A stretch of 60,642 nucleotides of DNA from a virus (taxonomy: Duplodnaviria > Heunggongvirae > Uroviricota > Caudoviricetes): IMG/VR virus record IMGVR_UViG_2721755676_000007; one strand, 5' to 3'. This document shows positions 16,178 to 33,526 of the stretch, in pieces; position 1 is the first letter of the stretch; each line of letters starts with the position of its first letter. The notes beneath the pieces are model-generated. The model was not told where the DNA came from and did not search any database. It saw only the letters and a program-made list of their open reading frames with translations. Both the position numbers and the translations under genes were made by a program.

Positions 16178-17203
16178 TTACGCCAGTTGTACGGACACGA
16201 ACTCATCAGGATCAGCCAGCAGCATCAGCGGTGCTGACTGAATCATGGTGAACTCTCGCGCCGGATCGCCGGATGTCTTCCAGTTTTTCGGATAACGGGG
16301 AGACGCATTAATACCCTCACTCAATGCGTCCGCATCCTGAATGCAGCCATAGGTGCGCAGACCGCGTGCCTGAGTGTTCCCCAGTACCATCGTGTTGTCC
16401 GGCAGGAAGTTCTTTTTGACGCCGTTTTCCACGTACTGTCCGGAATACACGACGATGGCCACATCGCCATACATCCCCTTATAGGACACCGCTTTACCCA
16501 GGTCTTTCACCGCTGTCTCCAGCTCGGAATGAGAGCCGCGACGGGTATCCAGCTTCTCCCTGACGGCTTTGAAGGAACGGAACAGCGCCCAGCCTTTCGG
16601 ATCAAACACGATGATATTCACCACGCCGCTGGCGTTCAGCGCGTAGGCTTCGATATCGTCGGTCGGGTCATACGTGGACTTGTCACGCTTGCTCCACTCC
16701 GTGCCGCCGGACTGCGTGATGTTGTTCGCCGCACTGCGGCCCATATCCACCTCAACCGGATCGAAGGCTTCACCGGTCATGGTGTATTTGCCCTTGAGCA
16801 CGGCAGAAACTGCCTGCATCTCTTCGACCTGAGCAATGGCCAGCTCTTCGTCACGCATGTTCTGCATGATGATGCGACGGCGGCGGTAAGCCGGGTCCGC
16901 CAGATTCTGCGGATCTTCATCCGGCAGGCGACGCAGGGTCATCTGCGGATTCACCTCATGCTTGGGTTTGACATATCCCGGCGTAAATTCAGAGGTGGAG
17001 CCGCCACGGGAACGGATAACCTCACCGGAAACAATCGGCGAAACGTACAGCGCCATGTTTACCAGTCCCGGAATTTGTGAGAGATAGACTTTCTCCGTAG
17101 TGAAGGGATAGCTCTCACGGAAAAAGAGACGCAGAAACAGCGGATCAAACTTAAATTTCTGCTCATTTGCCGCCAGCAGCTGGGCGGTTGTGTACATCGA
17201 CAT
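16178..17203 (-). CDS. E: Major capsid protein E
   Basis: Start at MSMYTTAQLLAANEQKFKFDPLFLRLFF gives 1026 nt as in lambda E. Confidence 0.93.
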   Translation of the reverse strand: MSMYTTAQLLAANEQKFKFDPLFLRLFFRESYPFTTEKVYLSQIPGLVNMALYVSPIVSGEVIRSRGGSTSEFTPGYVKPKHEVNPQMTLRRLPDEDPQNLADPAYRRRRIIMQNMRDEELAIAQVEEMQAVSAVLKGKYTMTGEAFDPVEVDMGRSAANNITQSGGTEWSKRDKSTYDPTDDIEAYALNASGVVNIIVFDPKGWALFRSFKAVREKLDTRRGSHSELETAVKDLGKAVSYKGMYGDVAIVVYSGQYVENGVKKNFLPDNTMVLGNTQARGLRTYGCIQDADALSEGINASPRYPKNWKTSGDPAREFTMIQSAPLMLLADPDEFVSVQLA

Positions 17204-17258
17204 AAAAAAATCCCGTAAAAAAAGCCGCACAGGCGGCCTTTAGTGATGAAGGGTAAAG

Positions 17259-17591
17259 TTAAACGATGCTGATTGCCGTTCCGGCAAACGCGGTCCGTTT
17301 TTTCGTCTCGTCGCTGGCAGCCTCCGGCCAGAGCACATCCTCATAACGGAACGTGCCGGACTTGTAGAACGTCAGTGTGGTGCTGGTCTGGTCAGCAGCA
17401 ACCGCCAGAATGCCAACGGCAGCACCGTCGGTGGTGCCATCCCACGCAACCAGCTTACGGGTGGAGGTGTCCAGCATCAGCGGGGTCATTGCAGGCGCTT
17501 TCGCACTCAATCCGCCGGGCGCGGTTGCGGTATGAGCCGGGTCACTATTGCCCAGCGGCTGGTAATGGGTAAAGGTTTCTTTGCTCGTCAT
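17259..17591 (-). CDS. D: Head decoration protein D
   Basis: Start at [12 protein letters not shown] gives 333 nt as in lambda D. Confidence 0.92.
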
Positions 17592-17600
17592 AAACATCCC

Positions 17601-18206
17601 TTACACTGGTGTGTTCAGCAAATCGTTAACGGCATCAGATGCCGGGTTACCTGCAGCCAGCGGTGCCGGTGCCCCCTGCATCAGACGATCCAGCGCAGTG
17701 TCACTGCGCGCCTGTGCACTCTGTGGTGCTGCGGCCAGAATACGGCGGGCCGTTTCCACGGTCATACCGGGGGTTTCTGCCAGCACGCGGGCCTGTTCTT
17801 CGCGTCCGTGAGCCTCCTCACAGTTGAGGATCCCCATAATGCGGCTGTTTTCTGCCGCAACCGCTGCGGTGATCTGCGCGTTCACGTCCGGCTGCGCCGC
17901 GCTGGCGTTTTCGCCCTCCGTCGCTGGCACCACGTCAGTAACGTCAGCCTGCGAAGCAGTGGCTGAAACAGTTGTTGATTGAGTCTCTTTGGTCATTCGC
18001 CCTCCTGAGAGACGGGATTTACGTGCATCCAGTGCATCACGCATGACGGTGATCGCATCGGTGCTGTTAACAAGTTCATCAGCCAGTCCGGCATCAATGG
18101 CCTCCTGACCGCTGTACACTGCAGCCTCGGTATCCAGCACAGCCTGCACGGACAGGCCGGTATATGCCGACACCTTCTGCGCAAACATCTGGCGGGTTGC
18201 GTCCAT
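17601..18206 (-). CDS. Nu3: Scaffolding protein Nu3 (in-frame internal start within C)
   Basis: Internal Met (MDATRQMFAQKVSAYTG) gives 606 nt sharing the C stop, as in lambda. Confidence 0.7.
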   Translation of the reverse strand: MDATRQMFAQKVSAYTGLSVQAVLDTEAAVYSGQEAIDAGLADELVNSTDAITVMRDALDARKSRLSGGRMTKETQSTTVSATASQADVTDVVPATEGENASAAQPDVNAQITAAVAAENSRIMGILNCEEAHGREEQARVLAETPGMTVETARRILAAAPQSAQARSDTALDRLMQGAPAPLAAGNPASDAVNDLLNTPV

Positions 18207-18920
18207 CCGGGACTGCAGTGTCTCCCGGACGTCATCCGGAAGATGGCTGTAGGGGTTGCCATCCACCTTATGGCTGCCGCTGTAAATCAGCGTGATTTCC
18301 ACACCCTGTTTCTCCAGGGCAGCACCGTAATTACTGTGAGCCATCATGACGCCGATGGAGCCTGTCCGGGCGGTCTGCGTGACCAGACGCCGGGAGGCGG
18401 CACTGGCAAGCAACTGACCTGCACTGCAGTTCATGTCGTTGGCCAGCGCCCATACCGGTTTTATGTCACGCACACGGGCGATGATGTCAGCGCAGTCAAA
18501 TGCCCCCGCCACCATCCCGCCGGGCGTGTCCATATCGAGCAGAATGCCGTCCACCATCGGATCGCTGGCAGCCTGTTGCAGACGGGCGATAATGCCGTTG
18601 TAACCGGTCATCCCCGAGTACGGCTGCAGCGCCCGCGTCCGGCTGACCAGCGTGCCGGACACCGGCAGCACGGCGATGCCGTTCATGACCTGATAACTGC
18701 GGGCCTGTCGTGGTCCGTCATCATCACCGGATAATGCCAGCGTCGCGAGTGCCTCCTGGGCAGTCAGGCTGTCGCCGGACACCGCATCCGTCAGGCGGCT
18801 GATCCCAAGCTGGCCTGCAAGCGCACAAAAGAAAACCCGCGCATAGGCGGGTTCAAGCATCAGCGGCTCATTAAAGGCCATACTGGCAATATGCGGGAGA
18901 TTACGCAGCTCTGCTGTCAC
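17601..18920 (-). CDS. C: Prohead protease / scaffold protein C (S49/ClpP-like)
   Basis: 1320 nt as in lambda C when started at the GTG at 18918-18920 (TAELRNLPHIASMAFNEPLMLEP); an in-frame ATG exists further upstream at 19055. Confidence 0.85.
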   Translation of the reverse strand: MTAELRNLPHIASMAFNEPLMLEPAYARVFFCALAGQLGISRLTDAVSGDSLTAQEALATLALSGDDDGPRQARSYQVMNGIAVLPVSGTLVSRTRALQPYSGMTGYNGIIARLQQAASDPMVDGILLDMDTPGGMVAGAFDCADIIARVRDIKPVWALANDMNCSAGQLLASAASRRLVTQTARTGSIGVMMAHSNYGAALEKQGVEITLIYSGSHKVDGNPYSHLPDDVRETLQSRMDATRQMFAQKVSAYTGLSVQAVLDTEAAVYSGQEAIDAGLADELVNSTDAITVMRDALDARKSRLSGGRMTKETQSTTVSATASQADVTDVVPATEGENASAAQPDVNAQITAAVAAENSRIMGILNCEEAHGREEQARVLAETPGMTVETARRILAAAPQSAQARSDTALDRLMQGAPAPLAAGNPASDAVNDLLNTPV

Positions 18921-19680
18921 TCTTCTCCTCCTCTGTTGATTGTCGCAGTCCGGATTCAAATGCCGCAGCCGCCCAGGCGGGCGGTTTAAGACCGGCTGCG
19001 CGGCGCTCCATCGTTTCACGGACCTGCTGGGCAAAAATTTCCTGATAGTCGTCACCGCGTTTCGCGCACTCTTTCTCGTAGGTGCTCAGTCCGGCTTCTA
19101 TCAGCATCACCGCTTCCTGAACTTCTTTCAGACCATCGATGGCCATACGACCGGAGCCTATCCAGTCGCAGTTCCCCCAGGCACTGCGGGCTTCCTGAAA
19201 ACTGAAGCGCGCTTTTGAAGGTAACGTCACCACGCGGCGAACGATGGCCTCTTCCAGCCAGCACAGAAACATCTGGCTCGCCTGACGGGATGCGACGAAT
19301 TTTCGCCGCCCCATAAAGTACGCCCACGACTCGTTCGCACTGGCCCGTGCCGTGGAGTAGCTCATCTGGGCGTAATTCCGGGAAAGCTGCTCATACGAGA
19401 CACCCAGCCCGGCAGCAATATACCGCAACAGTGACTGCTCAAATACGGAGTAGCCGTTATCCGTGTCCTGAGCCGTCTGCAGGTTCAGTGAGTCCCCCGG
19501 CATCAGGTGCGGCACTTTTGCGCCTCCCAGCCGGACCGGTGCTGCGGCGTAATACGCGGCAATTTCACCAATCCAGCCAGTCAGCCTTTCCCGCTGCTCC
19601 TGACTGTTCGCGCCCAGAATAAAATCCATCGCTGACTGCGTATCCAGCTCACTCTCAATGGTGGCGGCATACATCGCCTT
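18901..19680 (-). pseudogene. B: Portal protein B, C-terminal fragment (separated from its N-terminal part by the 10.9 kb insertion)
   Basis: Reads ...KA-MYAATIESELDTQSAMDFILGAN... to a C-terminus ending EEEKSDSRAA as in lambda B; upstream sequence beyond 19680 is unrelated. Confidence 0.9.
19673..19680. repeat. Left copy of the 8-bp junction direct repeat ATCGCCTT (att core or target duplication)
   Basis: Identical octamer at 30572-30579; both copies read K-A-(M/I) in the B frame. Confidence 0.85.
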
Positions 19681-19754
19681 TATGAAAAGACAGGAAAAAA
19701 TAAAATTTAAAAACAGTACATTACGAATGCTCAGACCTATCGTTTAAAGGAGTC

Positions 19755-19777
19755 GCAATACACACTGCAATACACGA
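19755..19777. repeat. Two direct copies of GCAATACAC(A/G) near the left end of the insert (candidate integrase arm sites)
   Basis: tcGCAATACACAcTGCAATACACGa; three copies of TGCAATACACA occur at the other end (30381-30434). Confidence 0.5.
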
Positions 19778-20107
19778 TTATTTATAAGATGAGCGGCATC
19801 CGTCATAAAGCTGGTGGATGCTTTTTCTATGCATATATGCACAGTTTTAGTGGGCGTTAATGTCGATATAGGGATCCCCATATCGAGATTGGATACCTGG
19901 CTTTTTTCCGGTTAACCTTTAATCAGGCTGGTGGGCTTTACCTGTTTTGTATGAGTGGTCATCATGACCATGTCATAACAAAAACCCCATATTCGTGGTT
20001 TTTCTGTGTCGGGCTATTCTGTCGTTGCTGTGCTGATTTGGCTGGTGGGCTGAATCATCATTACGGCGATGCAGCTATGTAGACGTTCCGGCCTCCTCAA
20101 ATTGAGG

Positions 20108-20245
20108 ATTGTGGAAGAATCAATGGGTTAGTCTTACTTTCCCGACATCCCCCAATGGGGGTTTTCGAAACAATCAATAGCTTAGGCTTACTTCCCCGAT
20201 TTCCTGCATTGCAGGTTTTCGAAATAATCAATGGGTTAGGCCATC
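20108..20245. repeat. 54-bp tandem repeat, about 2.5 copies, each unit containing a short hairpin palindrome
   Basis: AATCAATGGGTTAG / AATCAATAGCTTAG / AATCAATGGGTTAG at 20118, 20172, 20226; palindromes CCCCCAATGGGGG (20149-20161) and CCTGCATTGCAGG (20203-20215). Confidence 0.7.
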
Positions 20246-20489
20246 GTGCAATTTTGCACTTTGCCAGCCAGCGCAATGTCGCGTTATCAGTCCTCAGATG
20301 TGAGGGATGTAGCCAGCTTTTCCCCCAGTGGGGGATATCCAGCACCGACGGCTTAACTGTGCGTGCCAGCACAAGGTAGCCTTGAACTACTTACTGCATC
20401 CCATCTTACAGGCCGTGCCTTCCTGCTTAACTTTTTGCAATGCAACAAGTCAGCCAGCGCAATTTTGCGTTATCGGGAATATCAGCAAG

Positions 20490-20771
20490 TTACCGCCGCA
20501 ATCGTTCCGGCTTCTTCCACTGGTAAGTATTTTTCGCGCTCTCCCTCCGTTGTTGAGAACGGCGACGATATGCCAGCAACTCAAGGACTCTTGTTCGTAT
20601 GTTGCGCATATCCACGCCGTTAAGCTCAATACCGTCACGGCGCATCACCTCAGCCACTACACGCACATAATTATCTGCGGTCACGCTGTCCGGCTGCGTG
20701 GCCTGTTCGTCATGCTGCTTGCTGATTCCACAAGCACGGCGGATTAATCGCAGTATTTCGGATTCAGTCAT
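20490..20771 (-). CDS. Hypothetical protein (93 aa), satellite-encoded
   Basis: ORF downstream of the Nu1-like gene in the same orientation; no recognisable motif. Confidence 0.45.
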   Translation of the reverse strand: MTESEILRLIRRACGISKQHDEQATQPDSVTADNYVRVVAEVMRRDGIELNGVDMRNIRTRVLELLAYRRRSQQRRESAKNTYQWKKPERLRR

Positions 20772-20782
20772 AGCGTACTACG

Positions 20783-21337
20783 TTACTTATCTTTATTCGG
20801 CTGCAACTTATCCGGTACGTTTCCGGCAGTTTCCATCAGATAATCGGACAGCATCAGCGGTATGTTTTCGTCAAGTTTTGCGCATGCGTTACAGGCTCTG
20901 ATAACTTCTTTTTTCAGTCCATCCAGCATAGACGGCTTCATGTCGGGAAACTTCCTTGTCATGGCAAGCGGCAGGCTGTCCATGATTGAAGAAATCTGAC
21001 TCGCCAATTTTGAAAGCACGTATATACAAAACGCTGTATCAATAACGTCGCCGCGTTCGCGCTCGTTTTTAAGCTCCTGCGCCTCTGCCTGTGCTGTCAG
21101 CAATCTGATCCTGACTCGTAGAAGTTCATCATCATCAATCTCGCCTTTGTCGTCTGTAATCTGGTTAATTGCATTGCTAACCCGATTGTCTATTACGCTG
21201 GCAACATCATAAAACGCCTCGCGGCCTTTACGTTCAACGGGAGTCACTCCCCACTTGTCGAACGCTGTCGCACTTACACGGCAGCTTTGCGCCATGTTTT
21301 TTTTGTTCATCAGGTGCGATTTCATCAATATCCCCAC
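20783..21337 (-). CDS. Terminase small subunit homologue (Nu1-like), satellite-encoded
   Basis: C-terminal half aligns with lambda Nu1 (DTAFCIYVLSKLASQISSIMDSLPL vs ETAFCTFVLSRIAGEIASILDGIPL); sits about 120 bp downstream of the satellite cos; start may be the internal MNKKNM at 21310. Confidence 0.8.
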   Translation of the reverse strand: MGILMKSHLMNKKNMAQSCRVSATAFDKWGVTPVERKGREAFYDVASVIDNRVSNAINQITDDKGEIDDDELLRVRIRLLTAQAEAQELKNERERGDVIDTAFCIYVLSKLASQISSIMDSLPLAMTRKFPDMKPSMLDGLKKEVIRACNACAKLDENIPLMLSDYLMETAGNVPDKLQPNKDK

Positions 21338-21436
21338 TTAAGTAATGTTTCAGGTTGGTGTATTGGCTTTATCTTTTCCTTTTTATTCATAGAGATAGAG
21401 CGAACAACAAAACCACCACCAGCACCCGAAAAAGGC

Positions 21437-21502
21437 TCATAAATAGCGAAAACCCGCGAGGTCGCCGCCCCGTAGCCTACCGGATCACCGGAAAGGACCC
21501 GC
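21437..21502. other. Satellite cos site (cosN 12-mer at 21459-21470)
   Basis: 66-bp block with 4 mismatches to the prophage cos block at 34202-34267; contains the reverse complement of GGGCGGCGACCT; flanking cosB-side sequence differs. Confidence 0.8.
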
Positions 21503-21526
21503 CAGCCAGAGCGGGCCCTAATTTCA

Positions 21527-21910
21527 TCAACCAATCAGCTTATAGCGACCATCCCGTGCATTGCGGCGTACACGCTCAATCTTGAGGCATAGCGCCGCAT
21601 CTGGCTTTTTTGGGACAGGTACGCGGCAATATTCAGAAGCGCGAGGAATATTATTTATCCAGTCGATCACTTCACTTAAATACCAGGCCTTACGCCCTTC
21701 CGTAACCTGCACACGCTCCGGGAACTCTCCACTAGCCTCAAGGTTTAGCAGTGTACGACGACTCAGGGTTGTAATTTCCATCACCTGATTCATATCAACA
21801 AGGCGCTCGCTTAAACACATTTTGTCAGCGATAGCTTTTAATTCCTCTACAGCTGGATTCGGGTACATCATTTCGGCAATTGGCTTAAGGTCATTGTAAT
21901 CATTCTGCAT
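21527..21910 (-). CDS. AlpA-family HTH regulator (127 aa)
   Basis: C-terminal region ITTLSRRTLLNLEASGEFPERVQVTEGRKAWYLSEVIDWI resembles AlpA/excisionase-type HTH. Confidence 0.55.
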   Translation of the reverse strand: MQNDYNDLKPIAEMMYPNPAVEELKAIADKMCLSERLVDMNQVMEITTLSRRTLLNLEASGEFPERVQVTEGRKAWYLSEVIDWINNIPRASEYCRVPVPKKPDAALCLKIERVRRNARDGRYKLIG

Positions 21911-21921
21911 TGTATCCCCCT

Positions 21922-22263
21922 TTACACACGAGCCAGCGGCTGAACAGAAATACCTGAGCCAACAAACGCTGCAACCTTTACTGACAGTTCTTTAACAGAC
22001 TCAGGCCAGTTCAGAGCATCAACATTTAAGACACCTGTCTTATAGACCTGAGCCTGTGTTTTTTTCGCGGTGTCGATTTGTACAGCGGAAACATAAACCG
22101 CTTTACCTACGCTCGAACCATCCCATACCACCAGTGCACCTGTTGCATCTTCCTGCATCAGTGGCGTAAATGCAGGAATTACCCCTTTATTAGCTGAAAA
22201 TATCCCCAGCGTAGTCACCAGTGCTTCAGTGCCAGCCATGAGTTCAGTGTAATGAGTAGCCAT
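21922..22263 (-). CDS. Head decoration protein D paralogue, satellite-encoded
   Basis: 113 aa; aligns with lambda D over VWDGSSVGKAVYVSAV...YKTGVLNVDALNWPE vs [17 protein letters not shown]...[15 protein letters not shown]. Confidence 0.7.
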   Translation of the reverse strand: MATHYTELMAGTEALVTTLGIFSANKGVIPAFTPLMQEDATGALVVWDGSSVGKAVYVSAVQIDTAKKTQAQVYKTGVLNVDALNWPESVKELSVKVAAFVGSGISVQPLARV

Positions 22264-22272
22264 TGCTCCCCC

Positions 22273-23319
22273 TTAGCCAATGCGAACGGTAACAAAACGA
22301 TTGATGCGGGCCGGTATTGGCTGTGGTGCTGAATGTGTCTGCACATATTCAATAGCCGGATCACCAGGCACAATATAGTTTTTCGGTGCAAGTTCGGCTT
22401 TAGTCAGCCCCATTCGGATTAGCTCCGGATCCTGAATACCGCCATAGGCGACAATCCCCTGAAGAGCCGTATTGCCAAGCACCATCAAATCAGGATCAAG
22501 GAAATGTTTTTCTGTTCCGTCCTCGTCGGTATAACGCCCGCTGTAAACAACAATCGCAACATCGCCCATATACCCTTTAAAACTCACCGAATCACCAAGG
22601 TCTTTAAGGGCCGTTTCCAGTTCGGAATTAGAACCACGACGGGTATCCAAAGCCTCTTTTATCGCTCTGAATGAACGGTATTTCTTCCATACATTACCAC
22701 CCATAATGATGATATTAGTGACGCCCTCACTAAATTCTGCGTAGCTCTCAATATCATCATTTGGATCAAAAGTTTCTTTATCCTTACCTGACCACTCAGT
22801 ACCGCCAGACTGAGTGATGATATTTTGTGGTTTTATATTCCAGTCCAGCTCATAACGTTCAATACCATCGCCCTCAATGATATTTTTCCCCGTTGTGATT
22901 GCCTGAACAGCAAGCCATTCAATACGTGCACGAATAGCTTTAGCCTGATTTACAATCGCCTGTTTAACTTTAATATTACGCGCCCCAAAAGCATTGTATT
23001 GCTCAGGTGACACACCAGCAGGGCGCACAGCTAACTTATTTGGATCAATGCTGCTTTTCGGCTTCATATAACCTGGACGAATTGTTTTTGATTCGTATCC
23101 CTCATCTCGTGAAACTTTACTGCCCACCATAGGAGAGCAAAACGCCGCGATCGGGATATTTGGATCGTCGATCGTATCAAGAATAATGTCTCTCGATTCA
23201 AACATTACCGAGCGAGTGAAAAACAAACTGGTAAACAACGCATTTAATTTTTTTTGCACATCTTCAGCATTAGCCACCTGCACAAGCTGTGTAGGCGAAT
23301 ATAAATCAACCATACTCAT
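22273..23319 (-). CDS. Major capsid protein E paralogue, satellite-encoded
   Basis: 349 aa from MSMVDLYSPTQL; conserved blocks ITQSGGTEWSGKDKETFDPNDDIESYA and LDTRRGSNSELETALKDLGDSVSFKGYMGDVAIVVYSGRY match lambda E. Confidence 0.85.
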   Translation of the reverse strand: MSMVDLYSPTQLVQVANAEDVQKKLNALFTSLFFTRSVMFESRDIILDTIDDPNIPIAAFCSPMVGSKVSRDEGYESKTIRPGYMKPKSSIDPNKLAVRPAGVSPEQYNAFGARNIKVKQAIVNQAKAIRARIEWLAVQAITTGKNIIEGDGIERYELDWNIKPQNIITQSGGTEWSGKDKETFDPNDDIESYAEFSEGVTNIIIMGGNVWKKYRSFRAIKEALDTRRGSNSELETALKDLGDSVSFKGYMGDVAIVVYSGRYTDEDGTEKHFLDPDLMVLGNTALQGIVAYGGIQDPELIRMGLTKAELAPKNYIVPGDPAIEYVQTHSAPQPIPARINRFVTVRIG

Positions 23320-23530
23320 CCTCTTTACATTCATTACAAATAATTGTGAATATATTCTATTACCGATGTCTGCTATGCGAACACATGCAACCAAGTGCAA
23401 TGTTGTATAAAATATGCCGTAACAACTTCAGTGCTGATAATTCGTGTTAATGTATTTACTTCCTTTGGTCGGGATTTATGTAGCATGCCGGAAAATCTAT
23501 TTTTTTCCGGCATCTTTTTGTTTGCAGAAT

Positions 23531-23953
23531 TTAAAACGGTATATTATCGCCGTACGGATCATCATTCCCCGACTGTTGTTTTGCCCTGTTCAGTGCGTCA
23601 GTGGCCTGCCCCTGCTGGCCTTTTTTGCCGCCCGGTCGCGCCGTTCGCGCACTGATTACGCTGTCTGCGATAAGCTGCCAGCCCCGCCGCGTTTCGCCGT
23701 TCTGGCCTGTCCACTGGCTTACCTGCATGTTACCCGCCACGCTCACCAGTTCGCCTTTGTGGTGTTTTGCCAGTGCGTCGGCCTGTCTGCCAAACGCCAG
23801 GACGGATAACCACATCGTCGCCGTTCCGTCATCTGCCTGGCTGCACGGCAGGGGAACCGCCATACTCGCCATCGCCATTTGTGTCCCTTTGCTGGTGGTC
23901 TTTAACTGCGGGTCAGCCACCAGCCGCCCGTAAGCCGCTATCTGTGCTGTCAT
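23531..23953 (-). CDS. ssb: Single-stranded DNA-binding protein (SSB-like)
   Basis: 140 aa with OB-fold-like N-terminus, Gly/Gln-rich linker and acidic C-terminal tail ending DNIPF (SSB tip DDDIPF). Confidence 0.7.
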   Translation of the reverse strand: MTAQIAAYGRLVADPQLKTTSKGTQMAMASMAVPLPCSQADDGTATMWLSVLAFGRQADALAKHHKGELVSVAGNMQVSQWTGQNGETRRGWQLIADSVISARTARPGGKKGQQGQATDALNRAKQQSGNDDPYGDNIPF

Positions 23954-24264
23954 GCTGTCTGCTCTCCGGTTTTAACATTGATGGTTGTCACCTGTTCCGC
24001 TTCGGCAATCTCCCGTTCTGTCAGCGTGGCAAAGTTTGCCGCTGCTGTGGTCATAAATGCGCTTATCAGGTCGGGATGTTCCTTCGCGTATCCTGCCCGT
24101 GTGTGGTGGTCTATCGCTTTGATTGCCACCTTTAAGGAAAGCTCTGTCATGTCTAACGCTTTATATTTTGCCTGTGTTCTGTCTCTGCGAATTTTGGTCA
24201 TTTGTCGCCCCTGATTCATGTTTTCGGCTGGCATGTTTGTTAAGTGATTTTTATGTATGCGCAT
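23950..24264 (-). CDS. Hypothetical protein (104 aa)
   Basis: ORF coupled to ssb (ATGA overlap), immediately downstream of the iteron region. Confidence 0.45.
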   Translation of the reverse strand: MRIHKNHLTNMPAENMNQGRQMTKIRRDRTQAKYKALDMTELSLKVAIKAIDHHTRAGYAKEHPDLISAFMTTAAANFATLTEREIAEAEQVTTINVKTGEQTA

Positions 24265-24315
24265 TTATTTTCACCCCCCCTCGTTTAAAAAGTTTTTAGT
24301 TGTGCCTCCCCCCCC

Positions 24316-24537
24316 TCTACCCATCTACCCGAATGCTCATCATGTCAGTAATGGCGCCGCTTTCAGCGGGTAGATAGCTTTTTTGACTCCTCTACCTGCC
24401 GTCTACCCTGCTACCTGAAACTGATAAAATCAGGTAGAAGAGGTAGAGAGCTTTTATTAGCCTTCTACCTAGCCCTATACCCACTTATCATGTTGAATAA
24501 TATGCGTTTATTTCGTTCAGGTAGATGGGGTAGATGG
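24316..24537. repeat. Iteron array (GGTAGA / TCTACC repeats), candidate satellite replication origin
   Basis: At least 12 copies of the hexamer in both orientations immediately downstream of the primase gene. Confidence 0.7.
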
Positions 24538-24550
24538 CTTTTACAAAAAA

Positions 24551-26305
24551 TTATAAAAACGCGTCGCAATCGTCTGTTGTAATTGCGTTGGTCTGCGTTA
24601 CTCCCTTAACTTTTCGCGTAATATATTCATGCCCGTAAACTTTCGCCGCTGGCTTCATGGCCTTGCTGAACTCAGCCACGTTTAGCGGTTTGCTCCTGCC
24701 CGCGTATGCCATAAACGCCAGATAGACGCGGTAAAGGCTGTTCCTGGTCGTGTACTTCACTGAATCACCACCGCCACCCATCATCAGGCCGCGCGCTTCC
24801 TCCAGAAAATTCAGGAACTGGCAAAACTCAATAACCGGATCCGTCTGTTGCTTTATTGCCAGTGCTTCATCACCGTCACGCTGTTCCAGTAGTAAAGCCC
24901 GTGCCTTCTCAGGGTCGGTAAAGTTCGCCAGCAATCGGCGGATAATAACGGGGATTTCAGCCGCAATCTTTTCCGGTAGCTCCCTGTCTTTTTCGGCCTC
25001 ACTGACGATATTGTCGAAACGGAAAATCACGCGACGACGTGCCACACCTCCGGCCCGTTCGGTGAATATCATCGGGTTGTTGTTGGTCGCCAGCACCACC
25101 GCCCTGATTACCGCCGTGAAACGCTTTTCATATTTCGGGTTAATTTCCACGGGGTCGCCGCCTGTGATTTTCTTGATGCCCGTTCCTTCGCCTGTATATT
25201 TCGGCTGGTCAGCCAGGACGATAAGACGACTCCCGACAACCTGCGCACGTCCACCAGCATCATCAAGCGATGTCATTTCAGCGCTTACCGTGTTCTGTTT
25301 CCCTGCCAGAAGGCTGGCTATGTGTGTGAATGTACTTTTACCGCTCCCGCCGTCTCCGGTGGCCTCAATAAACATCTGCCAGTCGTACCGGTTCGCCATA
25401 ATCATGTACAGCGCGGCACATATACGCATCATCTTGCGCGGGTCTTTTCCGGCTGCGTGCTCAAGCCATTTATGAAAGTTTGGCGCGTTATCGCGGATGT
25501 TCTCCCCTGGTGCTGGTGGCGTGTACTCAATGCCGTTGTGCGTGGTGATCCAGTTCTCCGGCGTGTGCGGGGAAAATTCCCCCGTTTTCAGGTCAAGCGC
25601 ACCATTGGCGAACGGCAGCAAATCGCCAGACGGCTCGCCCATTGGTTCGGCAATAACTTTTAACGCTTCCACGGCGTTATTGATTACGCGCTTGCTGAAA
25701 GTGGCCCTGTGCTCTGAATAGATCGCCACCATTTCGCGGCTAAGTTCCATTGTGCTGACCGGACACCATACCCCGCCGCGCCATACGTGAACGATTTCAC
25801 TTTCAGGATGTACGCAAACGCCATCAAAGCGATCGGCAAGCAACTGCGCGCGCTCACTGTCCGCCATCTGCGAAAGTTGCGCCTTTTGCTTTACCGGAAG
25901 CTCAATGACCAGACCATCAGAAAGATTCTGGCGTTCACGGGCCAGATATTCGCGCCAGTTCTGCACCTCCTGGCCGTGCATACCCTCAGGATAAAAATTT
26001 GCATCCTGTACGCCTGCTGCCGCCAGCTTCTGACCAATCGCCTTTATCATTACAGGCGCAAGATATCCGGCCCTGTATATGCGTGCTGATTTTCGGCCTT
26101 CCGGCACAATTTGCAGATTATCCAGTTCGGATAGCTGCTGCTCCCCAAGCCACACAGGAGGCTCATTATCTCCGGCCATACGCGCATCATGTTCCTGCCA
26201 TTGTTTCGCGTGTGCCCAGGCATCACTACCCGCAAAAATAATTACTTCTGTTCCTTTGTGTTTTATGCCGCGTGACTGCTGTTTTACGTTCGGTGCCAGT
26301 TTCAT
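24551..26305 (-). CDS. P4 alpha-like primase/helicase (D5 family, Walker A GDGGSGKST)
   Basis: 584-aa ORF with P-loop NTPase core and phage/plasmid primase C-terminal-type architecture. Confidence 0.8.
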   Translation of the reverse strand: MKLAPNVKQQSRGIKHKGTEVIIFAGSDAWAHAKQWQEHDARMAGDNEPPVWLGEQQLSELDNLQIVPEGRKSARIYRAGYLAPVMIKAIGQKLAAAGVQDANFYPEGMHGQEVQNWREYLARERQNLSDGLVIELPVKQKAQLSQMADSERAQLLADRFDGVCVHPESEIVHVWRGGVWCPVSTMELSREMVAIYSEHRATFSKRVINNAVEALKVIAEPMGEPSGDLLPFANGALDLKTGEFSPHTPENWITTHNGIEYTPPAPGENIRDNAPNFHKWLEHAAGKDPRKMMRICAALYMIMANRYDWQMFIEATGDGGSGKSTFTHIASLLAGKQNTVSAEMTSLDDAGGRAQVVGSRLIVLADQPKYTGEGTGIKKITGGDPVEINPKYEKRFTAVIRAVVLATNNNPMIFTERAGGVARRRVIFRFDNIVSEAEKDRELPEKIAAEIPVIIRRLLANFTDPEKARALLLEQRDGDEALAIKQQTDPVIEFCQFLNFLEEARGLMMGGGGDSVKYTTRNSLYRVYLAFMAYAGRSKPLNVAEFSKAMKPAAKVYGHEYITRKVKGVTQTNAITTDDCDAFL

Positions 26306-26601
26306 TTTTTACCTCTGAATCCGTTAATCATGGTTTTCATTTTCTGGATATTTCCCCACGCTTTTTCCCTGCTGATGGGCTTACTGCGGGGTGCGGCATA
26401 TACCAGGGAAAAATCACGCCGGAACTGATAAACAGGCATCACGCAGTCATAGCTATACCCCTCACGGCGGTAAGTGATGCGCCGTTCTGCCACGCCTTTA
26501 ATCGTTACCGTGCCGCCGTATTTATCGCGGTAAATATCGCCGTTCATAAATTCAGGTCGAGCGGGGCCGCTGGCAATAAAGCCAGAATTTTTCATTTCCA
26601 T
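26302..26601 (-). CDS. Hypothetical protein (99 aa)
   Basis: ORF coupled to the primase start (overlap at 26302-26305). Confidence 0.45.
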   Translation of the reverse strand: MEMKNSGFIASGPARPEFMNGDIYRDKYGGTVTIKGVAERRITYRREGYSYDCVMPVYQFRRDFSLVYAAPRSKPISREKAWGNIQKMKTMINGFRGKK

Positions 26602-26618
26602 ATTATTTATTCCTCGAC

Positions 26619-26840
26619 TTAACTCGACTTATTTGATAGCAGGGCACTATTTATTGCGTCATTGAGTTTTTCTGCTGATTCATCAATAAGTGACAACAGG
26701 CCATAAGCAATATTTGCATCTTCATTGTCATTTATGCAATCAAGCCACATATTTAATATTGCTTTTGCTGAATTATTTAAAGTTAATGAACTTTCTGCAC
26801 ATGCTAACAATTTAAAAAAGACTTCCCGTTCTGTATTCAT
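26619..26840 (-). CDS. Hypothetical protein (73 aa)
   Basis: Small ORF in the same operon orientation. Confidence 0.4.
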   Translation of the reverse strand: MNTEREVFFKLLACAESSLTLNNSAKAILNMWLDCINDNEDANIAYGLLSLIDESAEKLNDAINSALLSNKSS

Positions 26841-27032
26841 TTAATCCCCCACCAGCTTACTTTCTTCCTCAATCAAAAAACTAGCGACACTTCCCGAAAG
26901 ACGCGCCAGTAGGCTCGCCAGTGCGGATATATCAGCATCTGTAATTTTGTTCGGGTATACCTCAAGAAGGCGGCAAATAATTTCTGTCTGGTGCGCACGT
27001 TCAGCGGCTTCGTGTAATGTAATTTCCTGCAT
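26841..27032 (-). CDS. Hypothetical protein (63 aa)
   Basis: Stop/start overlap with the next ORF at 27032. Confidence 0.4.
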   Translation of the reverse strand: MQEITLHEAAERAHQTEIICRLLEVYPNKITDADISALASLLARLSGSVASFLIEEESKLVGD

Positions 27033-27217
27033 TAATGCACCTCTTTTAATTCATACACTGCTGAAATAATGACTTGTGATAAGCCATATTCTGATGATTC
27101 GCTTCTCACCGCAGCAATAGCCGTCTGAACATTAACAGCCTTCACATTCTGAGCGATACCAATTGTGTGGCCTATTGGGTTAACAGCTCGGGCAAATACA
27201 CGGAAGGTTTTAAGCAT
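27032..27217 (-). CDS. Hypothetical protein (61 aa)
   Basis: ATG preceded by GGGAG-type Shine-Dalgarno; first gene of the leftward operon. Confidence 0.45.
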   Translation of the reverse strand: MLKTFRVFARAVNPIGHTIGIAQNVKAVNVQTAIAAVRSESSEYGLSQVIISAVYELKEVH

Positions 27218-27597
27218 GACTCACTCCCTGGCGGATTTTTGCAGCGAATACAGCAACACAACCGGACGGGCAACGGCTACGCGCTTCGCGTTCCGTCCAG
27301 GCGGTTACGTGGATGATTTGAGATTCTCCGGCACTCAGTGCCAGAAAACGCCACACAAAGGCCGTTTGTGTGTGTACAAGGTGTGGTATATGATTTACAG
27401 CAACCATAACGGCTCCTAGTTTACGTTGTTGGTTAGACGCCCCGTATGTGTTCCCAGCACTGCGGGGCGTTGCTCTTTGTATTTCAACAATCCTTTCGGT
27501 GTGTTTCATGTTATGAGCGCATGAAACACACGTCAAGGCTTTTTGTATTTCTTTTTTTGTGTATACTGAAACACACCGATGATTAGGAGTTTCAGAA

Positions 27598-27903
27598 ATG
27601 GCAACGGCTAACAAAAACGCAAAATCACAACTGACAACTGTCAGAGTCCCACTAGATGTTATGCAAGGGATGGAATCCGTTAAGCTGGACGGTGAAAGCA
27701 ATGCCGGATTTATCGTAACCGCCATGCGCGGAGAAATAGCCCGCCGCCAAGCAGAAGGCAGCGGAGAAAATCCCCTTGTGTCGTCACTGGATGCCCTGGC
27801 TAAGGTCGAACAAATCGGCATCAAAGCAGCCGAGGAGATCGGGCAACTCGTCACCGTCGCGCGTGAAGAACTCCAGCGACGCAAGGTCAAAGAGCATGAA
27901 TAG
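27598..27903 (+). CDS. Small DNA-binding-like protein (possible ribbon-helix-helix), the only plus-strand gene in the satellite
   Basis: 101 aa; AGGAG 8 nt upstream of ATG; divergent from the small-ORF/primase operon across 27218-27597. Confidence 0.5.
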   Translation: MATANKNAKSQLTTVRVPLDVMQGMESVKLDGESNAGFIVTAMRGEIARRQAEGSGENPLVSSLDALAKVEQIGIKAAEEIGQLVTVAREELQRRKVKEHE

Positions 27904-28236
27904 CCAATATCAGCGCCATAGTTTGAGGAACGCAGGCGCATTGCTTTACAGGACAGCACCATGAGCGACACAGAATCAACCAAAACACCATCACCAACTC
28001 GTAAGAGACGACGCAAAAATATAGCGCATGAACATGAATCAGAAAGATTCGCACCTTGTTCGTTTGCTCTTGAGAAATTCCTTAAAGAGCACAGGAAAAA
28101 GCTCTCGTTGCAAACCTTGGAACGAACCAAATCTGGCTGATCACATTGCCCACCAGCCGCAAATGTGGCATTGTTGGTGATGCTTTTGTTTTCCCTTGTT
28201 CCCACTGGCGACCCTTTTGCGGTCGCCTTTGTTTTG

Positions 28237-28560
28237 TCACTGAATGCGGTTACCAAAGTAAAACTCAGGCTGATATTCACGTATCAGCGTTTTTTCTTCT
28301 TCCTCCAGCTCACGCTTTTTGCGCTTACATGCCTGTAGCTCCCTCCCCTTCTCGCTGGCACTTATTTGATATTGCTCTTTACGGCGGGAAAAATCCTGTA
28401 ATGCACCCCACGGGATACCATAAGTCCCCGTTTTTCTGATACCTGGTATCACATTTCTGAATACCCAGTTACTGAAACGATGAGCAAATGTGCCAGGCGT
28501 CGTTGCTTTGCGGCTGCGGGCTATTAGTTTGTAGAAACCTGACTCAGAGATAATTCTCAT
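28237..28560 (-). CDS. Bro-N domain protein, C-terminal part (split ORF)
   Basis: SESGFYKLIARSRKATTPGTFAHRFSNWVFRNVIPGIRKTGTYG is the second half of a Bro-N domain. Confidence 0.6.
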   Translation of the reverse strand: MRIISESGFYKLIARSRKATTPGTFAHRFSNWVFRNVIPGIRKTGTYGIPWGALQDFSRRKEQYQISASEKGRELQACKRKKRELEEEEKTLIREYQPEFYFGNRIQ

Positions 28561-28814
28561 ATTCTGATTTCCTCCTGGGTGTAAGTTAAATTTACTCCCT
28601 TTTCATCATCATCAAGCATCTGCAACGCCGTACGCGAATTGGTTAGTTCCAGCGCAGCACAAACATCTTTTGCAACAAACCACGGATCGCCGTTCAGATA
28701 CACCACACGAACGTTCACACTATCAAAGCGCAGAACGACGAGATCACGAATATCGCAGAATTTTTTCACTGGACGAGCGTACCCCTTGCCCGTCACGGCA
28801 ATATTTTTATTCAT
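28557..28814 (-). CDS. Bro-N domain protein, N-terminal part (split ORF)
   Basis: DPWFVAKDVCAALELTNSRTALQMLDDDEKG is the first half of a Bro-N domain; ends GGAGGAAATCAGAATATGA overlapping the next start. Confidence 0.6.
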   Translation of the reverse strand: MNKNIAVTGKGYARPVKKFCDIRDLVVLRFDSVNVRVVYLNGDPWFVAKDVCAALELTNSRTALQMLDDDEKGVNLTYTQEEIRI

Positions 28815-28870
28815 CGCGTTTTTACCTTATAGACAAAAAACCCCTCGTGATGAGGGGCATTATTTACTGG

Positions 28871-29128
28871 TTATTGCTGTTTTGTTTTTCCAGGTTTCCA
28901 TCCAGGATGCCACTCACCACGGATCCATGCCTGAACCTCTGAAAGTCGATACCCTGCAGCACGTTCACCGATCTTGATACGTCGCGGGAATTTACCTGCC
29001 TGCTCCATTTTCCAGCGTGTTGAGTTTGCCAGCGTGGTAAGTGCTATGCACTCTTTTTCACGAATGAACCGATCAATGTCCTTCATTGTGCGCAAATCGT
29101 TTTCATCAACAAGAGAATAAATTGCCAT
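28871..29128 (-). CDS. alpA: AlpA-family transcriptional regulator / excisionase-like
   Basis: 85 aa directly downstream of the integrase, typical P4/CP4-57-type int-alpA pair. Confidence 0.7.
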   Translation of the reverse strand: MAIYSLVDENDLRTMKDIDRFIREKECIALTTLANSTRWKMEQAGKFPRRIKIGERAAGYRLSEVQAWIRGEWHPGWKPGKTKQQ

Positions 29129-29129
29129 A

Positions 29130-30371
29130 TCACACCACCTCTTTATTAAGCTCGATAACGTTGTTGTTAAATCCTGCTATCGTATTAAGGTAATTAACCC
29201 ACATATTAAGCACCTCAAGTTTTTTCTTTATATGCCTGCTTTTATTGTAAACACCAGCAACCCCTTTCACTTTATGACCTAAAAGAAGTTCGACAATATA
29301 AGGATCCGCCCCCATATCATTAAGCGTAGTGGAAAATGTGCGCCTGAAATCATGTATGCACCACAAGCCATTAGTATCATGACCAAGACGCCTGCATATT
29401 CTGTTTGCAGCCCCTGTTATTGTCGCCCTTTGCAAAGCACAACCGACAACATAACCGCGATTTTTTGTTTCTGCGTAAAGATTAACGATCCATTGTTTTA
29501 TTCCGTCAGGAACAGGCCTTACTATAGCCTCCTTGTTTTTGCTGTGCTCTTTTGGGACTGTCCATACCCAGTTTTTTAAATCCCATTCGTCCCAGGTGGA
29601 TAGCCTCGCCTCCTGCTGTCGGCAACCAAACACCAGGCAGATAACCATTATTCTTCGGTTATATATTGATGACAGAGTTAGCAAATTATTACCGTAAGCA
29701 TAAGACCATACATCAGCGGTTTCATTGATATTAAGAACGCGATCCCTTATACCGGATGAGCGCCCGACATAACTTACGTTAATATCTCCAAAGGGATCGC
29801 ACGCGATGTATTGCCTGACGCGACAAAAACGCAACGCCTGTTTGATATCAAGAAAAATTGCACCAGACATAACAGGCGCATTTTTTTTGATCCTGTCAAA
29901 GACGGTAAGCCATGTGTGTAATTTGCACTGTTCTATAGCCATATCACCGATATAGGGGAAGATATGCTTTTCAAATCGTTTTATTAAATATTCATGCTCT
30001 TTTCTGGCTGTTGTGGCGTGATTGTCGTACCAGTAAAACAGCGCATCCCTTACGGTCACTGGTTGCATAGTTTTTTCGGCAGCAAGTTTTATTTGCCTGC
30101 GGGGGTCCAGATTTTCAGCCAGCCATTCACGGCACTGATCACGCATGCGCCTGGCCGTTGCAAGAGACATGTCAGGATAGCGACCAAGTGTAAGCCATAC
30201 CGGAGGGGATTCCCTGCCACCAAGACGATAGTAAAAAACAAAGCTGATCCCCCCAACCATGCTTACACGCACAGACAACCCGCGCCCATCCGCTATTGTT
30301 TTTTGTTTGTCCTGCCGTTTTCCGACAAGACTCTTTAACAGTTTGTCACTGAGTTTGTTTTCAATAGCCAT
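29130..30371 (-). CDS. int: Tyrosine integrase, P4-type
   Basis: 413 aa; N-terminal GRGLSVRV...GGISFVFYYRLGGR arm-binding-type domain; C-terminal HDFRRT...LLGH...Y catalytic signature. Confidence 0.88.
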   Translation of the reverse strand: MAIENKLSDKLLKSLVGKRQDKQKTIADGRGLSVRVSMVGGISFVFYYRLGGRESPPVWLTLGRYPDMSLATARRMRDQCREWLAENLDPRRQIKLAAEKTMQPVTVRDALFYWYDNHATTARKEHEYLIKRFEKHIFPYIGDMAIEQCKLHTWLTVFDRIKKNAPVMSGAIFLDIKQALRFCRVRQYIACDPFGDINVSYVGRSSGIRDRVLNINETADVWSYAYGNNLLTLSSIYNRRIMVICLVFGCRQQEARLSTWDEWDLKNWVWTVPKEHSKNKEAIVRPVPDGIKQWIVNLYAETKNRGYVVGCALQRATITGAANRICRRLGHDTNGLWCIHDFRRTFSTTLNDMGADPYIVELLLGHKVKGVAGVYNKSRHIKKKLEVLNMWVNYLNTIAGFNNNVIELNKEVV

Positions 30372-30380
30372 TAAAAGCCC

Positions 30381-30434
30381 TCAAGAGATTTGCAATACAC
30401 ACCCATCCCGATCGCCAATTTGCAATACACATTG
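30381..30434. repeat. Three direct copies of TGCAATACACA upstream of the satellite integrase (candidate arm-type sites)
   Basis: Copies at 30381, 30411 and 30424; same motif twice at the opposite end of the insert. Confidence 0.55.
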
Positions 30435-30571
30435 CAATACACAAAACCGCGAAAAACTGGAAGGGTGATGAACGGTCATCAAAAGCATGGAAAACGACAT
30501 TCCAGACGCAGCAAGGGTTTCAGTGGAGTTGGCGAACGATGCGGGCAACTACGGTGAGATGATAGACATAA

Positions 30572-33500
<2,929 letters not shown>

Positions 33501-33526
<26 letters not shown>

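Follow-up and report, generated by a model that had tools for sequence, protein, structure and literature searches.

A single Bro-N gene, carried by a helper-embedded PICI satellite, has very probably been inactivated in recent time by the deletion of one C from a run of four. The window, i.e. the whole 60,642-nucleotide stretch of viral DNA analysed here, contains on its minus strand two overlapping reading frames, ORF1 and ORF2, which are complementary parts of one Bro-N domain and meet at a junction with the pattern AGGAGG-N10-ATGA. The gene is well known and the satellite is of a known kind; the locus itself is a pseudogene of an ordinary sort, produced by a recent one-base frameshift. The coordinates of the junction, of the satellite and of the interrupted host gene are collected in Table 1.

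Table 1. Features of the split Bro-N gene, the satellite that carries it and the flanking portal gene
Feature	Coordinates	Strand	Description	Basis
ORF1, 85 aa	28557..28814	minus	Bro-N residues 1-79 plus out-of-frame QEEIRI, then stop	
ORF2, 107 aa	28237..28560	minus	Bro-N residues 86-192; start is internal Met86 of the intact gene	
Lesion site	28577..28579	minus	CCC (plus-strand GGG); CCCC in intact alleles	alignment and base-by-base comparison
Shine-Dalgarno-like hexamer AGGAGG	28571..28576	minus	within intact-gene codons CCA GGA GGA (Pro80-Gly81-Gly82)	
ATGA overlap	28557..28560	minus	shifted-ORF1 stop TGA (28559..28557) and ORF2 ATG (28560..28558)	
Intrinsic-terminator-like hairpin	28834..28858	minus	GCCCCTC-ATCAC-GAGGGGT followed by T6; between alpA and the Bro-N start codon	
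alpA (AlpA-family regulator/excisionase)	28871..29128	minus	directly upstream of Bro-N	PF05930, E 5.4e-14; RefSeq annotation
Satellite tyrosine integrase, 413 aa	29130..30371	minus		PF13356, PF00589
Primase gene	24551-26305	minus		
Second AlpA-family gene, 127 aa	21527-21910	minus	late zone of the satellite, between decoration-protein and Nu1-like small-terminase genes	PF05930, E 7.6e-9
Helper-embedded PICI satellite, 10,886 bp	19681..30566	minus		empty-site comparison with strain WP8-S17-ESBL-05
13-bp core repeat CATACATCGCCTT	19668-19680		satellite end	
13-bp core repeat CATAAATCGCCTT	30567-30579		satellite end	
Portal, N-terminal part	30520..31401	minus		Phage_portal_2 profile positions 2-242
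Portal, C-terminal part	18901..19674	minus		Phage_portal_2 profile positions 238-354

The junction and the missing base

The proposal of the initial annotation that the halves of a Bro-N domain lie in two consecutive ORFs in different frames was borne out by profile searches. Against the Pfam Bro-N family (PF02498, gathering cut-off 25.6 bits) ORF1 matched profile positions 1-42 (E 2.5e-9, 38 bits) and ORF2 positions 64-96 (E 4e-5, 24.6 bits, slightly below the cut-off). When one C was restored, the resulting 192-aa reading matched positions 1-96 of 96 with an E value of 3.8e-20 (72.7 bits), and this full-length match of the repaired reading means that the likeness of the two halves to Bro-N did not arise by chance.

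When all complete RefSeq E. coli genomes were searched by megablast with an 801-nt query that takes in the locus and its surroundings, 115 records were found at >=99% identity, and all of the best 60 of the 115 were one base longer than the aligned query (802 versus 801 nt; in one instance 800 versus 799). E. coli relatives at 99.8% identity carry, in 802 nt where the window has 801, a single 579-bp CDS for the 192-aa protein WP_001038675.1, which is annotated as a BRO-N domain-containing protein or antirepressor. Compared base by base over the whole gene, the window copy is this intact CDS minus one C at about gene position 236, and this is the sole difference. The run that lost the base is ACACCCCAGG; in the junction alignment the intact alleles read ACACCCCAGGAGGA and the window reads ACACCCAGGAGGA. 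The run lies 17-20 nt upstream of the ATG and overlaps a CCAGG (Dcm) motif. Since there is no other nucleotide change in the gene, the deletion event is a recent one. A shift at the GAAAAGGG run, where the frame of ORF2 opens, was also considered and was rejected when alignment with intact alleles placed the lesion in the CCCC run.

The initial annotation had interpreted the site as an 8-bp insertion relative to a continuous E-I-R-I-I-S reading and had suggested comparison with intact Bro-N orthologues in order to find the indel. That comparison did identify it, as the single C deletion in the C4 run, and the 8-bp insertion is replaced by one base missing relative to the intact 579-bp allele. 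At the protein level the intact product reads ...DDDEKGVNLTYT-PGGNQN-MRIISESGFYKLI..., the continuous reading being ...NLTYT-PGGNQN-MRIISESGFY..., and the first 79 aa of ORF1 are identical to WP_001038675.1 while ORF2 is identical to its C-terminal part. The locus of WP_001038675.1, found in E. coli satellites, is thus the same DNA but for one C and has the same neighbours (int and alpA upstream, a convergent YlcI/YnfO-family gene downstream); the window has the CCC allele in place of CCCC, hence two ORFs of 85 and 107 aa.

The junction, written on the minus strand, is ...ACTTACACCCAGGAGGAAATCAGAATATGAGAATTATC..., with the CCC directly followed by AGGAGG, a 10-nt spacer and the ATG. The junction string and the strong Shine-Dalgarno sequence of the initial annotation are therefore present; its spacing of 8 nt is not, the distance to the ATG being 10 nt from AGGAGG and 9 nt from GGAGGA. 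A stop/start overlap (ATGA) with a Shine-Dalgarno-like sequence at a workable distance does exist at this site, and 10 nt is towards the upper limit of the spacings that can be used. Both AGGAGG and ATG are in frame in the intact allele, where they are coding sequence for Pro80-Gly81-Gly82 and Met86, and the TGA of ORF1 is just the first stop of the shifted frame.

Translation from the normal start would be expected to produce residues 1-79, shift frame at the lesion, add QEEIRI and stop at the TGA, which happens to overlap the gene's own Met86 codon. With AGGAGG provided by the Pro-Gly-Gly codons, ribosomes may re-initiate there to give a 107-aa C-terminal fragment, so that transcripts of the window allele would encode an 85-aa stub and perhaps also this fragment. 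Judged from the sequence comparisons, the split is an accident of coding sequence and not an evolved arrangement.

Conservation of the frame and state of the domain

In exact-sequence look-ups the 85-aa product of ORF1, whose QEEIRI tail is diagnostic of this one-C deletion, was found on 2 contigs, and the intact 192-aa protein on at least 1000. Over 1000 further E. coli assemblies have the gene in intact form. Among the best 120 representatives of 90%-identity clusters, every one (120/120) is 192-194 aa long and continuous over the junction, as are the 60 best complete genomes, and the split is consequently not conserved in relatives. The largest allele groups read ...GIRGNPNHSVVSESGFY... (RGNPNHSVV), with neither Met nor GGAGG. 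Met86 and the GG codons, taken as a conserved internal start, are hence absent from the majority allele group of the 120 best cluster representatives, and the combination of Shine-Dalgarno sequence and ATG is not conserved even in the intact family. The wider Bro-N family amounted to 24,989 representatives at E <= 1e-3 in a library of 1.84 billion proteins; for the majority of the best 150 of these the top-scoring stretch covered approximately residues 25-135, across the break.

The consequences for the protein were evaluated by means of an alignment of 70 sequences from relatives 37-58% identical to it, in which T79, G82, Q84, E91, G93 and Y95 are >=90% conserved. Residues 80-85 (PGGNQN), including the near-invariant G82 and Q84, are in neither ORF. 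The core motif T-x-GG-x-Q…(I/V)SE-G-Y does not occur in one polypeptide, being divided between ORF1 and ORF2, and with PGGNQN missing and the cut falling inside a beta-hairpin the two parts do not jointly cover the whole Bro-N domain. In the AlphaFold model of the intact protein (mean pLDDT 81.9, and >90 across residues 31-120) the break falls within the hairpin that links strands 72-79 and 82-89, and a long C-terminal helix, residues 142-181, comes after the Bro-N domain. Because residues 80-85 are lost and a hairpin of the DNA-binding fold core is cut, Bro-N function is most likely lost or badly impaired in the window allele; with all these findings combined, the Bro-N fold most likely does not form from the window products. 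A PDB sequence search with the protein returned chance-level TonB matches only. Foldseek against the PDB gave only weak matches (E > 0.01; Mbp1/APSES and Ski/Dachshund), which fit a DNA-binding fold and are uninformative beyond that.

The gene is disrupted in other isolates as well. An 11-bp deletion of nt 128-138 was found in GCA_001286025 and in ERR178158, a delA167 allele in SRR13068692 and a delG216 allele in SRR30896069, while several further cases of a separate 107-aa ORF2 were contig ends. From all three of these alleles gene callers output the same 107-aa ORF2. Since unrelated frameshifts lead to the same call, the "second ORF" is a generic by-product of any upstream disruption, which makes gene finders choose the same internal AGGAGG-ATG. 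Database entries for a 107-aa "putative prophage antirepressor" (e.g. CTW68695.1) are artefacts of such frameshifts or contig ends. There is a low background rate of sporadic frameshifts in the Bro-N gene, and four rare alleles among thousands of copies are no ground to claim selection.

Weighing the alternative explanations

A sequencing or assembly error, the true genome having CCCC and an intact 192-aa gene, is improbable. A homopolymer overlapping the CCAGG Dcm motif is a context prone to systematic nanopore errors, and the difference is a single base in such a place; moreover none of the 60 best matches in complete RefSeq E. coli genomes has the CCC allele. Against this, a run of four Cs is short for systematic error, and the remainder of the window gives little sign of it. 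Other long ORFs are unbroken, e.g. those of 641, 584, 859 and 1159 aa, an alignment of 28 kb with a related complete genome has only 2 gaps, and strain WP8-S17-ESBL-05 matches about 89% of window 36000-60642 at 100.0% identity. Furthermore, an independently assembled Logan contig of 12.8 kb from run ERR3985404 matches window 25557-31814 (6258 bp) at 100% identity, the CCC run included; it is recorded in three samples, whose read sets may come from the same study and platform. The identical contig in three read sets favours a clonal mutation over sequencing error, and a real clonal mutation is the more likely of the two on this sequence evidence.

The gene then resembles, in every respect compared, ordinary homopolymer frameshift pseudogenes of prophage and satellite accessory genes: a single base lost from a short run, no further decay, a single clone affected and an intact allele dominant in the species. 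The initial annotation had left open a recent frameshift pseudogene and a functional two-part arrangement. The former agrees with one lost C, no other changes and an intact allele on at least 1000 contigs versus 2. The latter fails on the same counts of contigs and on residues 80-85 being in neither ORF; nor do the hexamer and ATG, which had been put forward as a coupling signal, qualify as one, being in-frame codons of the intact gene in a family most of whose alleles read RGNPNHSVV without the Met.

A more speculative possibility is that the 107-aa re-initiation fragment, which comprises some of the helical half of Bro-N and the long C-terminal helix, is stable and has partner-binding or dominant-negative activity, and that the recurrent frameshifts (four alleles) reflect selection on Bro. 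The AGGAGG-N10-ATGA geometry is compatible with re-initiation, which makes a stable C-terminal fragment conceivable; as a whole the proposal is regarded as a long shot. If true, it would mean that helper-embedded satellites are selected to lose or modify Bro function.

It is very unlikely that the locus encodes an evolved two-part Bro-N, in which translational coupling through AGGAGG-N10-ATGA yields polypeptides that assemble into an active domain. The ATGA overlap, the perfect 6-nt Shine-Dalgarno-like hexamer 10 nt upstream and the native sequence kept in both pieces speak for such a system. The hexamer and the ATG, however, are missing from most family alleles and are already coding sequence in the intact one, the cut lies inside a beta-hairpin with six residues lost, and ORF2 alone scores under the Pfam cut-off; non-conservation of the split largely refutes the arrangement.

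Recoding by a -1 ribosomal frameshift in the 54-nt overlap, giving a full-length protein, is scarcely credible. The frame of ORF2 is open from 28611 to the ORF1 stop, so any -1 slip there would lead to a 192-aa product, and the candidate slip sites include GAA_AAG and a formal X_XXY_YYZ heptamer, A_AAT_TTA (28593..28587), inside the overlap. The same sequence is nevertheless present in the intact allele, where slippage would harm, the downstream RNA fold is no better than shuffles (z = -0.77), and there is no upstream Shine-Dalgarno-like stimulator. The two-frame state is not conserved either, relatives having one frame, so that the combination of heptamer, stimulatory element and conservation expected of a programmed -1 frameshift was not found; at best there could be low-level leakiness. 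Likewise hardly worth entertaining is a phase-variable on/off switch at the C tract controlling Bro-N in the satellite, for which the homopolymer length change and the independent frameshifts elsewhere in the gene in other isolates might speak, since contingency loci generally need tracts much longer than four bases, the off state is very rare and the remaining disruptions of the gene are scattered over unrelated sites, which fits random mutation and not a dedicated switch.

A recent frameshift in one Bro-N gene is of little consequence in itself, being a loss-of-function allele of a routine kind in an accessory gene that is widely annotated, with an apparent coupling signal that is a coding by-product. 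In annotations, a single frameshifted Bro-N pseudogene is the appropriate label for the locus, and not two genes.

The satellite, its helper prophage and transcription of Bro-N

The Bro-N gene lies in a satellite of a lambdoid prophage, whose lambda-B-like portal gene is split in two by the co-oriented insertion. In strain WP8-S17-ESBL-05 a closely related prophage, approximately 99% identical over this stretch, has an empty site and an intact 533-aa portal, and it is this empty site which defines the 13-bp core and where the satellite ends. Gene order on the minus strand runs int, alpA, Bro-N, a convergent pair (a 59-aa ORF and a YlcI/YnfO-family gene), an Icd-like gene, small ORFs, DUF4222, primase, SSB, major capsid, decoration protein, the second AlpA-like gene and the Nu1-like small terminase. 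Co-oriented int, alpA and primase, insertion in a late gene, flanking core repeats and an empty site are all present, as in helper-embedded PICIs (HE-PICIs), a class described by Tommasini, Mageeney & Williams 2023 (PMC10111431), who named the site B:Phage_portal_2:241. The window satellite, a 10.9-kb int-alpA-Bro-primase-late-gene element, is like the HE-PICI at that site in being co-oriented and inserted at portal profile position ~240, and the four-zone order Integration / Bro / Replication / Late is common to both (PMC10111431). The "Bro zone" lies between the integration and replication zones (PMC10111431), and the Bro-N gene is part of the Bro zone of this known type. No structural difference from the HE-PICI was found; the window copy differs in having a frameshifted Bro-zone gene.

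Over window 16680-33520 the satellite was compared with that of strain 20Y000092, to which it is 99.93% identical with 8 differences in 10.9 kb, whereas the flanking helper late DNA has >200 differences in ~6 kb. A near-identical satellite with divergent flanks implies that the satellite moved between, or was conserved across, distinct helper prophages. On this comparison the frameshift is among the very small number of changes that this strongly conserved mobile element shows, and the natural bro-minus allele in a satellite so close to that of 20Y000092 could serve as a ready-made Bro-zone mutant. No test of Bro-zone function in helper-embedded PICIs was found in the literature searched, nor any experimental study or role test of the Bro-N protein. 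The protein matches PHROG "anti-repressor" families, and from this and the Pfam Bro-N homology, together with its place in the element, the intact form is inferred to be a DNA-binding or regulatory protein of the satellite Bro zone.

The terminator-like hairpin between alpA and Bro-N is kept in the 86%-identical allele of strain 10 with both arms changed. The interval from the hairpin to the Bro-N ATG is too short to hold a promoter, and a promoter scan detected none just upstream. With no promoter after the hairpin, Bro-N expression probably depends on read-through or antitermination past it, and transcripts would reach Bro-N by way of int, alpA and the conserved terminator. HE-PICIs have been described as subject to "passive helper-driven late transcription" (PMC10111431). 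Since the satellite is co-oriented in the helper late operon, antiterminated helper late transcription crossing it is the obvious candidate for, and probably the source of, such read-through, in agreement with that description.

In phage P4 eta/kil-cI a Bro-network gene is translationally coupled to an alpA homologue (summarised in PMC10111431). The window is like P4 in that a Bro-network gene directly follows an alpA-like gene, with termination between or within them a plausible control point. Unlike the alpA-eta coupling of P4, the stop/start overlap in the window is inside the Bro gene, was made by mutation and is not conserved. Some elements in PMC10111431 carry a C4/isrK-type immunity RNA; none was detected in the window Bro zone, and, again unlike P4, no CI/seqA RNA homologue was found there, P4-type C4/isrK (CI/seqA) RNA giving no Rfam match at E <= 1 in 26000-30500. 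At gathering score, Rfam yielded nothing in the whole window except RNA-OUT (99.5 bits, 42763-42832, minus strand), which adjoins a 402-aa transposase ORF at 42825-44033 and belongs to an IS10-type insertion (42763-44033) in the early region of the helper prophage.

The region made up of 27598-28140 (plus strand) and 27415-27597 holds the YlcI/YnfO-family gene (101 aa) and the 59-aa ORF, both convergent to Bro-N, and a 180-bp gap across which they diverge from the Icd-like/primase operon. Inside the gap there is a promoter-like site (27536..27508, minus strand), a layout that resembles a repressor/operator switch. A plus-strand terminator is located at 28207-28237.

A doubled motif, GCAATACACAYTGCAATACAC, occurs once near each satellite end (19755-19775 and 30422-30442), ~81 and ~131 bp from the core centres; in this spacing it matches the "doubled DNA motif" that PMC10111431 describes in the attP arms of HE-PICIs. 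Near the downstream end of the satellite, after the Nu1-like small-terminase gene, three tandem 54-nt repeats (20088-20249) were found which are 65-72% identical and occur nowhere else in the window. Each contains a short palindrome and an AATCAATRG-TTAG core, and they could be binding sites for packaging or replication proteins.
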